In this document: in pieces, positions 5,542-19,722 of the stretch
Layout of the letters: every line of letters begins with the position of its first letter
Numbering within the stretch: the first letter of the stretch is position 1
IMG/VR virus record: IMGVR_UViG_3300050343_000218
DNA from: a virus
Reading direction: 5' to 3' (one strand)
DNA: 64,000 nt
Program-made: the position numbers and the translations under genes
Notes under the pieces: model-generated
Databases searched by the model: none
Seen by the model: the letters and a program-made list of their open reading frames with translations, nothing else
Told to the model about the DNA's origin: nothing

Positions 5542-5712
5542 TTACTTGGTGTACGTTTTACCACGATAGCAGAAAGTCCCGTGAGACTCTTTGCTTTCTA
5601 CACAACGGGTATCATACTTAACACCACGATATGAGGTGTGGGTAATCTGTGCGTTGTGAAGTGCAGATGCTTTGTTGATCTGCTTCTTGATCAAGTTGAG
5701 TGAATTCAACAT
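5542..5712 (-). CDS. DUF4278-like 'downstream peptide', 56 aa
   Basis: Hand-translated MLNSLNLIKKQINKASALHNAQITHTSYRGVKYDTRCVESKESHGTFCYRGKTYTK; two YRG motifs; SD CAGGAG. Not in ORF track (<60 aa). Confidence 0.75.
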   Translation of the reverse strand: MLNSLNLIKKQINKASALHNAQITHTSYRGVKYDTRCVESKESHGTFCYRGKTYTK

Positions 5713-5747: not shown

Positions 5748-5977
5748 CGTTCCTTCAGTCGTGTGCGTCCCAATACCATTGGCATTCTGGCGATGAGTCC
5801 TTAAGGGTCTCAACCAACTCAACCTTAAGCTGATTGTTAAGGTTGGTATTGTTCTCAATCTTCAGCATAATAGCATCAGTTTGAGTACAAGTGAGTGTTG
5901 TGTAGAATAGTACTTCTAGCATTAGGATGAACGGCTCCGTTCCGCGACTTACTTGCGTCCCCCTAGGGGGATGAACG
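5748..5977 (-). ncRNA. Glutamine-riboswitch-like RNA (glnA / Downstream-peptide class), split around an ORF
   Basis: CGUUCA-P2-CGCAAGUA-AGUCG ... CGACU-GAAG-GAACG plus a second CGUUCA/GGAACG pair; begins a few nt after the -10 of a sigma70 promoter and precedes a DUF4278-like gene. Confidence 0.75.
5755..5922 (-). CDS. 55-aa peptide embedded in the riboswitch-like RNA
   Basis: Hand-translated MLEVLFYTTLTCTQTDAIMLKIENNTNLNNQLKVELVETLKDSSPECQWYWDAHD. Confidence 0.65.
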   Translation of the reverse strand: MLEVLFYTTLTCTQTDAIMLKIENNTNLNNQLKVELVETLKDSSPECQWYWDAHD

Positions 5978-6037: not shown

Positions 6038-6475
6038 TTACTTTCTATTGCCCCACTGGACGTTAGGAAACGCATCCCTGACTACGTTCTCGGTGATTCT
6101 GTATTTTGTTTTAAGTTTTTTATCCTTTGCCAAGCAGACAACCTCAGCTTCAGACTCGTGTAACCCCTCCAGGAGACCCACAAACATCGACTCCCGCTTG
6201 AGAGCAGGAAGACTATCACCACCACCCTTCACGAAGTAACGGAGGATCCTATGCTCAGTACTGAGGCGTGTGTGCTCTGTACCCTCAGGCACTTCGTTTG
6301 GTTTGTAAGGAACGTTACCCTCAGGAAGATTTGACTCAATACTGGGATCGTAATTGATGATCAAGATCTTGCGAAGAGCTTCGCTGTTATTCTGTTTTAG
6401 AAGTTTAACCTTTTGTTCCTTGGTCTTAGCATTGCTCACTTTTTGGAGCACTTCAGATACTAATAGTTCAGCCAT
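6038..6475 (-). CDS. Conserved T4-like hypothetical protein
   Basis: LVSEVLQKVSNAKTK...LPEGNVPY...RESMFVGLLEGLHESEAEVV. Confidence 0.75.
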   Translation of the reverse strand: MAELLVSEVLQKVSNAKTKEQKVKLLKQNNSEALRKILIINYDPSIESNLPEGNVPYKPNEVPEGTEHTRLSTEHRILRYFVKGGGDSLPALKRESMFVGLLEGLHESEAEVVCLAKDKKLKTKYRITENVVRDAFPNVQWGNRK

Positions 6476-10696: not shown

Positions 10697-10795
10697 AAAA
10701 AAGTAAGACCATCAGGGAATGGTGGAGTTACTATTCCTCTACGCCCTAGGCAGAGGTATTAAAGACGTGTTTAGACACCCTATAGGTCTTGGTTT
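10697..10795 (-). ncRNA. PhotoRC-II-like structured psbA leader
   Basis: AAGACC...GGGUGUCUAAACACGUCUUUAAUACC...GAAUAGUAA...CCAUUCCCUGAUGGUCUUACUUUU resembles, from recall, the motif found upstream of cyanophage psbA. Confidence 0.65.
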
Positions 10796-10802
10796 GAGGA
10801 GT

Positions 10803-10820
10803 GTTACGAACCGTTAAGAA
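10803..10820. promoter_or_regulatory. HLR1-like direct repeat (possible RpaB site)
   Basis: GTTACGAA-CC-GTTAAGAA in psbA 5' region. Confidence 0.45.
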
Positions 10821-19649: not shown

Positions 19650-19722
19650 CAGGTCAGGTAGGACTCGAACCTACAATCGGCAACTTAGAAGGTTGATGCA
19701 TTATCCATTATGCTACTGACCC
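19650..19722 (-). tRNA. trnR: tRNA-Arg(UCU)
   Basis: GGGTCAG/CTGACCT acceptor stem, anticodon loop CTTCTAA, GGTTCGAGTCC T-arm; CCA not encoded. Confidence 0.95.

Follow-up and report, generated by a model that had tools for sequence, protein, structure and literature searches.

A probable nested double glutamine aptamer around a small gene in a cyanophage leader RNA

How can two sets of glutamine-aptamer elements be accommodated in one leader RNA when a gene lies between their strands? This question is raised by the IMG/VR virus record IMGVR_UViG_3300050343_000218, from which a stretch of 64,000 nucleotides (nt), hereafter the window, was analyzed; all positions given below are on its minus strand. 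The window belongs to a T4-like cyanomyovirus, an ocean cyanophage, and its best DNA matches are S-RIM44, S-CAM4, ACG-2014 and other Kyanoviridae. The segment from 5979 to 5720 contains the elements of a glutamine aptamer twice over, with the strands of the two sets interleaved (Table 1). A first 5′ half (A) is followed by a near 3′ half, then by a second 5′ half (B) and finally by a far 3′ half, each 5′ half being a CGUUC strand and each 3′ half a GAACG strand of a helix P1. In a nested arrangement, half A pairs with the far half (A:far) and the near half with half B (near:B), while in a tandem arrangement half A pairs with the near half and half B with the far half. We regard it as probable that this RNA is a nested double glutamine aptamer with a gene (open reading frame 1, ORF1) inside its long-range helix P2′, and that it serves as the leader and the ON switch for ORF2 of a self-contained two-gene phage transcript, which would run from the promoter at 6014-5985 to the terminator at 5519-5498.

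Elements and pairing of the twin RNA

The initial annotation of this locus described a split, apparently twin glutamine-riboswitch-like RNA wrapped around a gene, just after a TTGACT/TATAAT promoter. The promoter is present, and every RNA element quoted was located on the minus strand, with coordinates that are right except for the start of CGACU, which is 5761 and not 5760. The roles assigned to individual nucleotides here are taken from solved structures, in which the ligand site is made up of the C1-C5 strand, the G18 triple, the C19:G41 linchpin and the G35 triple (PMC6698751). Both units retain equivalents of all of these, and the ligand-site nucleotides CGUUCA, CGC and G-GAACG-G, found in both, are near-invariant among relatives. 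In the outer unit, CGCAAGUA agrees with the RF01739 consensus CGGAAGUA and with the RF01704 consensus CGCA. The element set is more than a chance occurrence, because its helices covary (see below), because GGAACGG and CGUUCAU[CU]C each occur twice on the whole 64-kilobase (kb) minus strand with all copies inside this RNA, and because the 5′ half, used as a 66-nt query, has matches in 424 phage records, 254 of them over at least 80% of the query length. A 651-nt region, used in the same way, has matches in 418 deposited phage records.

Related loci were gathered from IMG/VR via the ORF1 protein and DNA patterns, and 242 distinct RNAs were parsed. An ORF lies between 5′ half B and the far 3′ half in 173 of these. 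The remaining 69 are compact, ORF-less forms in which the order of elements is unchanged, P2′ is a short hairpin (for example UCCCAAUGGGA) and a DUF4278 gene follows directly.

The position that distinguishes the two arrangements is the fifth base pair of each P1. Listed in the order A, near, B and far, the four strands read CGUUC/GAACG/CGUUC/GAACG in 223 distinct RNAs, which are uninformative (35 of them are without a parsed 5′ half A), CGUUC/CAACG/CGUUG/GAACG in 13 (2 of them without a parsed 5′ half A), CGUUC/AAACG/CGUUU/GAACG in 4 and CGUUU/CAACG/CGUUG/AAACG in 2. In 19/19 informative variants, out of the 242, both A:far and near:B are Watson-Crick paired, whereas each time both tandem helices contain a mismatch, which is C-C, G-G, U-C or G-A. 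The changes in near:B are CAACG/CGUUG in 15 variants and AAACG/CGUUU in 4, and in A:far a C:G pair has become U:A in the loci L222 and L302. Since CAACG/CGUUG is found in the compact as well as the ORF-bearing class, this change arose or spread more than once.

The helices were also examined on a MAFFT alignment of 91 ORF-bearing forms, with 500 shuffles as reference. Here, the nested structure is 97.0% paired, with A:far, near:B and P3 each at 100% (90 sequences), and 0/500 shuffles reach its covariation score. Nine cells of near:B are changed on both sides, all four closing pairs of the P2 hairpin have changed on both sides while remaining 100% paired, and the closing pairs of P2′ covary. 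The tandem pairing, imposed on the same alignment, leaves 9 unpaired cells per P1 and shows no covariation there. P3 has compensatory variants in AAUCG/CGAUU, AGUCA/UGACU and GGAAGG/CCUUCC, along with G-U intermediates; in a large compact class it reads GGACGG/CCGCCC, with one central mismatch, and the E-loop strand GAAG alternates with AAAG among relatives. Covariation of P3 and of the 11-base-pair (bp) helix P2′ in related phages, which the initial annotation had named as a check on its reading, is found in P3 and at the closing pairs of P2′.

Folding energies point the same way. With each fold enforced in ViennaRNA, the nested arrangement reaches -73.4 kcal/mol and the tandem arrangement -69.0 kcal/mol, a difference of 4.4 kcal/mol in favor of nesting. 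The unconstrained minimum free energy (MFE) structure of 5979-5705, at -79.5 kcal/mol, contains P2, near:B (pair probability ~0.97) and 11/11 P2′ pairs (probability ~0.9). The covariation and the 4.4 kcal/mol gap both speak against the tandem fold and the tandem-with-kissing fold; the latter, two units whose loops kiss via AGUCG/CGACU, is the alternative that had been offered in the initial annotation.

At the Rfam gathering threshold, the whole window returns only PhotoRC-II and one transfer RNA (tRNA), with no glutamine riboswitch match. In E-value mode, RF01739 and RF01704 align to 5979-5934 only, with sub-threshold scores of 28.6 bits (threshold 35) and 27.4 bits (threshold 33), respectively. 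These alignments pair the first CGUUC with the near GAACG and omit the GAAG strand of the E-loop, and the compact alignment they imply is a misreading. A full match is missing for a technical reason, as the 185-nt insert in P3 exceeds the span of such small models. The natural counterpart of deleting the ORF insert from the window is the ORF-less relative L090, which scores 37.6 bits against RF01739 (threshold 35), its 5′ half A being aligned to the far 3′ half with 52 nt within P3. Thus the layout favored in the initial annotation, an outer glnA-type junction that shares P3 with a permuted inner core, is upheld by the 19 informative variants, the P3 covariation and the L090 alignment, and at the level of sequence comparison the nested twin with a shared P3 is the supported fold.

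Table 1. Features of the twin-aptamer transcript, in 5′ to 3′ order on the minus strand (SD, Shine-Dalgarno sequence; aa, amino acids)
Feature	Position	Sequence	Remarks
Sigma-70-type promoter	6014-5985	TTGACT 6014-6009; TATAAT 5990-5985	18-nt spacer; consensus 11/12
5′ half A	5977-5973	CGUUC, then A5972	Outer P1 5′ strand; partner is far GAACG 5752-5748
P2 hairpin, outer unit	5971-5958	UCCCCC-UA-GGGGGA	Directly after CGUUC-A
Outer groove strand and E-loop 5′ strand	5957-5950	CGCAAGUA	CGC groove strand with base-triple and linchpin nucleotides, plus E-loop 5′ strand
E-loop strands	5954-5950; 5756-5753	AAGUA; GAAG	Flank P3; RF01739 consensus positions
P3 5′ strand	5949-5945	AGUCG, then C	Partner CGACU 5761-5757; helix common to both junctions
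Near 3′ half	5943-5937	G-GAACG-G	GAACG 5942-5938 and CGUUC of half B 5933-5929 make the inner P1 hairpin, loop AGC
SD-like sequence	5938-5935	GGAG	Last stem G and loop of inner P1 hairpin; 12 nt upstream of ORF1 AUG
5′ half B	5933-5929	CGUUC, then A5928	Inner P1 3′ strand
P2′ 5′ strand	5927-5917	UCCUAAUGCUA	11 bp with UGGUAUUGGGA; holds ORF1 start codon 5922-5920
ORF1	5922-5755		55 aa; phrog_504 end to end, E 1e-24; T4-GC_430 annotation in relatives
P2′ 3′ strand	5778-5768	UGGUAUUGGGA	~138 nt from UCCUAAUGCUA; also codons near ORF1 C-terminus
Inner groove strand	5767-5762	CGCACA (CGCA 5767-5764)	Groove strand CGC; also codes Ala-His
P3 3′ strand	5761-5757	CGACU	Overlapped by ORF1 stop UGA 5757-5755
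Anti-SD helix	5758-5752; 5729-5723	CUGAAGG; CUUUCAG	7/7 bp in MFE fold, probability ~1.0
E-loop 3′ strand and far 3′ half	5756-5753; 5752-5748	GAAG; GAACG, then G5747	Agrees with RF01739 consensus GAAGGAACG
ORF2 SD	5724-5720	AGGAG	Overlapped by CUUUCAG; 7 nt before ATG at 5712
ORF2	5712-5542		56 aa, two YRG motifs; DUF4278/IF17-like; phrog_545, E 1e-33; T4-GC_937
Intrinsic terminator	5519-5498		Hairpin and T run; closes the two-gene unit

The enclosed gene and the helix before ORF2

ORF1, which lies wholly inside the P2′/P3 enclosure, is a real protein-coding gene. A comparison of 61 distinct versions of 55 codons gives 10131, 4231 and 16483 substitutions at codon positions 1, 2 and 3; roughly every second codon difference is synonymous, and indel lengths are multiples of three. 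The protein has two conserved cysteines, and its AlphaFold model consists of three short helices forming a small bundle (mean predicted local distance difference test score 80). A Foldseek search against the PDB gave no match with E below 2.7, and a Pfam search gave no match.

The gene and the RNA are written over one another at both ends of the reading frame. Third-position entropy averages 0.88 bits over codons 4-47 and is zero over the last six codons, W-D-A-H/N-D-stop, in the 61 sequences. These codons are at the same time the end of P2′, the inner CGCA, the 3′ strand of P3 and the first base of the E-loop, and they are frozen at synonymous sites because they are the RNA core; the inner CGCA is also kept in ORF-less forms. 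The AUG occupies a fixed offset in the 5′ strand of P2′, where at least 2/3 of its bases are paired in 138/173 relatives, and the stop codon lies over CGAC-UGA-AGG in 160/173 ORF-bearing variants. With the start codon, the stop codon and six sense codons also being aptamer nucleotides, translation and ligand sensing must compete. The near:B loop reads GAG(N), giving GGAG, in 153/173 ORF-bearing forms versus 1/69 compact forms, and this GGAG is probably the Shine-Dalgarno (SD) sequence of ORF1. Neither this motif nor the double use of the C-terminal codons as aptamer core was part of the initial annotation, from which the DUF4278 gene and the anti-SD platform were likewise absent.

That platform lies between the two genes. 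The 5′ strand of the anti-SD helix runs from the end of P3 through the E-loop strand to the first G of the far GAACG. Because this strand is shared, the anti-SD helix and the outer aptamer are mutually exclusive, and their competition predicts a glutamine ON switch for ORF2. A 6-bp version of the helix is found in 165/173 ORF-bearing forms. The two strands covary, AAAG being accompanied by CUUUAG in 55/55 cases and never by CUUCAG, while GAAG pairs with CUUCAG, or with CUUUAG via G-U, and CCGAAG pairs with CUUUGG. ORF2 itself scores 23.2 bits (E 9e-5) against PF14105, just under the curated cut-off of 25.3. The DUF4278 domain is found in IF17, the glutamine synthetase inactivating factor, and in the proteins that glutamine riboswitches of both types typically control. 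In the gifB leader, the validated type-1 switch precedes a DUF4278 gene and turns it ON; inhibition of glutamine synthetase is known for Synechocystis IF17 alone (PMC6212724).

Known systems, proposed mechanism and competing explanations

The outer unit is built like the type 1 glutamine riboswitch (glnA RNA, RF01739; Synechocystis gifB (IF17) leader, PMC6212724), with the same P1 CGUUC/GAACG, A, P2 hairpin, CGxAAGUA...GAAG E-loop and P3. As in the gifB leader, a DUF4278 gene follows, and a pairing against the ribosome-binding site competes with the aptamer, implying an ON switch (PMC6212724). Unlike type 1 (RF01739), in which P3 is a short hairpin, P3 is here closed by ~185 nt that contain a second core and a gene, and the linchpin is of the type-2 kind (CGC...GAACGG, not CGG...GAACGC). 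The inner unit resembles type 2 (Downstream-peptide motif, RF01704; Prochlorococcus yfr6, PMC6698751, PMC2864571) in its CGUUCA-hairpin-CGCA, its G-GAACG-G, the lack of an E-loop and the YRG peptide gene downstream. In contrast to type 2, however, the inner GAACG precedes CGUUC and is joined to it by a loop of 3-6 nt, which amounts to a circular permutation with the chain open where P3 would be. Where type 2 forms an H-type pseudoknot between the 5′ CGUUC and GGAACGG in a 3′ hairpin loop, the inner unit is a plain hairpin, and the hairpin of type 2 is here a long-range helix around the ORF.

In the tandem glycine riboswitch, side-by-side aptamers dock via tertiary contacts. The likeness to that system lies in two like aptamers, one expression platform and possible contacts between aptamers, the difference being that here one core is nested within a helix of the other. 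Group I and II introns are structured RNAs with ORFs in peripheral loops. HEARO RNA has been marked 'contains an ORF' (supplement of PMC2864571). With the introns and HEARO RNA, the present RNA has in common a protein gene in a peripheral stem of a conserved fold and the existence of both ORF-less and ORF-bearing forms; unlike them, it would be a cis-regulatory riboswitch acting on the same mRNA, and start and stop codons are part of its aptamer helices.

The tandem glutamine aptamers of Ames and Breaker 2011, as summarized in later accounts, are described as distinct units spaced by a few nucleotides; no expression platform had been identified for them, and they did not behave cooperatively in vitro (PMC5066625; PMC2864571). 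Two glutamine cores per leader are common to both systems, whereas here the strands are interleaved, P3 is shared and there is a covarying anti-SD helix. Cyanophage glutamine riboswitches are already known in outline (PMC9964418). For interleaved strands, a permuted core or a gene inside the stem of a glutamine riboswitch, no published description was found in the literature covered, which did not include the original text of Ames and Breaker 2011. Neither a nested form nor an ORF in glnA is noted in the supplement of Weinberg et al. 2010 (PMC2864571).

In the mechanism that we propose, the outer unit would be a type-1 (glnA-like) three-way junction of P1, the P2 hairpin, the E-loop AGUA/GAAG and P3, and the inner unit, at the far end of P3, would be a circularly permuted core consisting of the local P1 hairpin, the long-range P2′ and the groove strand CGCA. 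When no ligand is present, CUGAAGG would pair with CUUUCAG and occlude part of the ORF2 SD. Glutamine, which by homology to validated aptamers the window RNA would bind, would then stabilize P1, the E-loop and P3, withdrawing CUGAAGG, freeing the SD and presumably switching the IF17-like protein ON. Binding of a second glutamine to the inner core, if it occurs, may prepare the inner end of P3 and so sharpen the response; the two cores could in this manner act cooperatively, and the phage could sense host nitrogen. Translation of ORF1 may provide a further layer. The ORF1 start region is transcribed ~150 nt ahead of its pairing partner, and ribosomes could load on the nascent RNA, where they would keep P2′ from closing and hold P3 and the anti-SD helix open. 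A ribosome that stops at the UGA would sit on CUGAAGG, so that the ORF2 SD should become accessible and ORF2 would be coupled to the translation of ORF1; once ribosome traffic ends, the RNA could fold and act as a sensor. The most elaborate version, in which both cores bind glutamine and cooperate via the shared P3, ribosomes on ORF1 open P2′, P3 and the anti-SD helix, and the RNA combines a metabolite signal with its past translation, thereby fixing the relative amounts of two small proteins in infection, is possible, but we hold it to be doubtful.

Several observations count against a nested glutamine switch. The MFE fold is without the outer P1 and P3, and the nested fold lies 6.1 kcal/mol above this ground state, so that ligand and tertiary contacts must supply the difference. 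The covariation that discriminates between the arrangements comes from a single base pair in each P1 helix and may represent three to five independent events. The inner CGCA has become CGAA in a few variants, in which case the inner core may not always bind, and a clash may arise if a 5-bp P3 and its E-loop must hold two junctions. The window itself falls under the threshold of both Rfam glutamine models, and the published tandem glutamine aptamers were without cooperativity in vitro (PMC5066625).

Among the competing explanations is an ordinary side-by-side tandem made up of A with near (5979-5934) and B with far, the ORF lying in the first hairpin of the latter and AGUCG/CGACU at most kissing. 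The sole cmscan matches in the window do use A with near, cmscan favors B with far in the relative L092, and glutamine aptamers in tandem, a few nucleotides apart, are described in the literature (PMC5066625). Such a tandem, however, would carry the mismatches described above in every informative variant while the nested helices stay Watson-Crick, its A-plus-near unit would have neither the GAAG E-loop strand nor a P3 of its own, and its fold is the less stable one; we consider it very unlikely. The two pairings might instead succeed one another, with A:near forming first during transcription and being displaced later by the nested fold, or the reverse, and with the exchange itself as the regulatory step. 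Both pairings are possible in the window and in 223/242 variants, and the near GAACG is transcribed ~190 nt before the far GAACG, yet the tandem pairings are broken in the informative variants and have thus not been kept by selection, leaving strand exchange with a slighter chance still.

A different objection accepts the nested fold and holds that the outer unit alone is a working aptamer, the inner one being a scaffold or duplication remnant that presents the ORF1 SD, hides the AUG and closes P3. The inner unit has no E-loop, its permuted topology has never been shown to bind, and its loop has the SD-like GGAG essentially only when an ORF is present; the CGAA variants and the published lack of cooperativity fit this explanation as well. 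The inner unit nonetheless keeps every ligand-contact or triple nucleotide (CGUUCA, CGC, G-GAACG-G), even in ORF-less relatives that are free of coding constraint, and in our view an outer aptamer acting alone is unlikely, if a good deal less far-fetched than strand exchange. At the other extreme, the RNA might not sense a metabolite at all, with CGUUCA...CGCA and GGAACGG serving on either side of a mobile small gene as sites of protein binding, RNA processing or recombination. ORF-sized inserts at three different loops among relatives could indeed mean a mobile cassette, but the blocks match two curated glutamine aptamer models, covary as helices, stand upstream of a gene family typically under glutamine riboswitches and are linked to a covarying anti-SD helix, and of all the explanations weighed here this is the one least to be expected.

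Variation among relatives, wider meaning and genome context

A census published in 2017 counted only two glutamine aptamers among cyanophage genomes, and its conclusion was that riboswitches are rarely used by phages (PMC5473149). With the 5′ part found in 424 cyanophage records, the switch may be widespread among marine T4-like cyanophages and may escape covariance models because its layout is split and nested, and the use of riboswitches by phages may be underestimated. If nested as proposed, the inner unit would be a naturally occurring aptamer core in circular permutation, for which no natural riboswitch is known to provide a precedent, and the anti-SD helix is a candidate expression platform for multi-aptamer glutamine switches, none having been identified before (PMC5066625). 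The phage may in this way time the IF17-like factor, and hence host glutamine synthetase, by host nitrogen status.

Some relatives carry further insertions. In L071:400-600, the loop of the near:B hairpin holds an insert of ~165 nt with a 41-codon ORF and a helix-turn-helix-like motif (LPIRKLAEVYQTSHTSIRRWKK), a third gene-bearing loop of this RNA. The P2 hairpin is opened by an insert of 230-440 nt in L006:352-580 and L059:352-580, and also in L055; in L006 and L059 this insert encodes a 66-aa protein with a weak match to the ORF1 family profile (hmmsearch E 1e-6), and paralogous small genes are thus possible in P2 as well as in P2′. An extra conserved element of ~40 nt (GGAAAAACGGAUCC-hairpin-GAGAAGGUUAAUUU) lies between the far GAACGG and the anti-SD strand in L109, L115, L116, L125, L222, L302 and others, and is missing from the window. 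Contigs from bins assigned to Synechococcus, Nonlabens and Euryarchaeota (L206 (JBJBBP010000001.1), L213, L214 and L216) likewise contain the interleaved RNA, and one of these contigs, at 194 kb, is as large as a cyanomyovirus genome; these are probably phage DNA within the bins. A contig scan gave 13 matches, mostly by chance, the real ones being on phage-like contigs of metagenome-assembled genomes.

Transcription is predicted to start at ~5979-5977, directly at the 5′ end of the RNA, and the pattern TTGAC...TAnnnT is present in 124/191 distinct upstream sequences of relatives. There is no NtcA box of the form GTA-N8-TAC near the riboswitch promoter, where only GTA-N9-TAC occurs (5991-5977). 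An inverted repeat spans the -10 box at 5998-5981, reading GGACAU...AUGUCU in the window with one G-U pair. Within the 45 nt upstream in L005-L336, 177/191 distinct relatives have a stem of 5 bp or more whose end is at most 5 nt from the first CGUUC, versus ~20% of shuffles, and the complementarity is kept although the sequence varies; the repeat may act as an operator or, on read-through transcripts, form an RNA hairpin.

Upstream, at 6038-6475, a gene for a DUF6433 protein (PF20025, E 1.7e-50) ends 24 nt before the -35 box of the riboswitch promoter. The two Rfam matches of the window lie farther away. The tRNA gene, at 19650-19722, scores 64.9 bits against the Rfam tRNA model, and the PhotoRC-II RNA, a known photosystem-associated motif of cyanophages, is found at 10723-10816 with 65.6 bits, well over the Rfam threshold.

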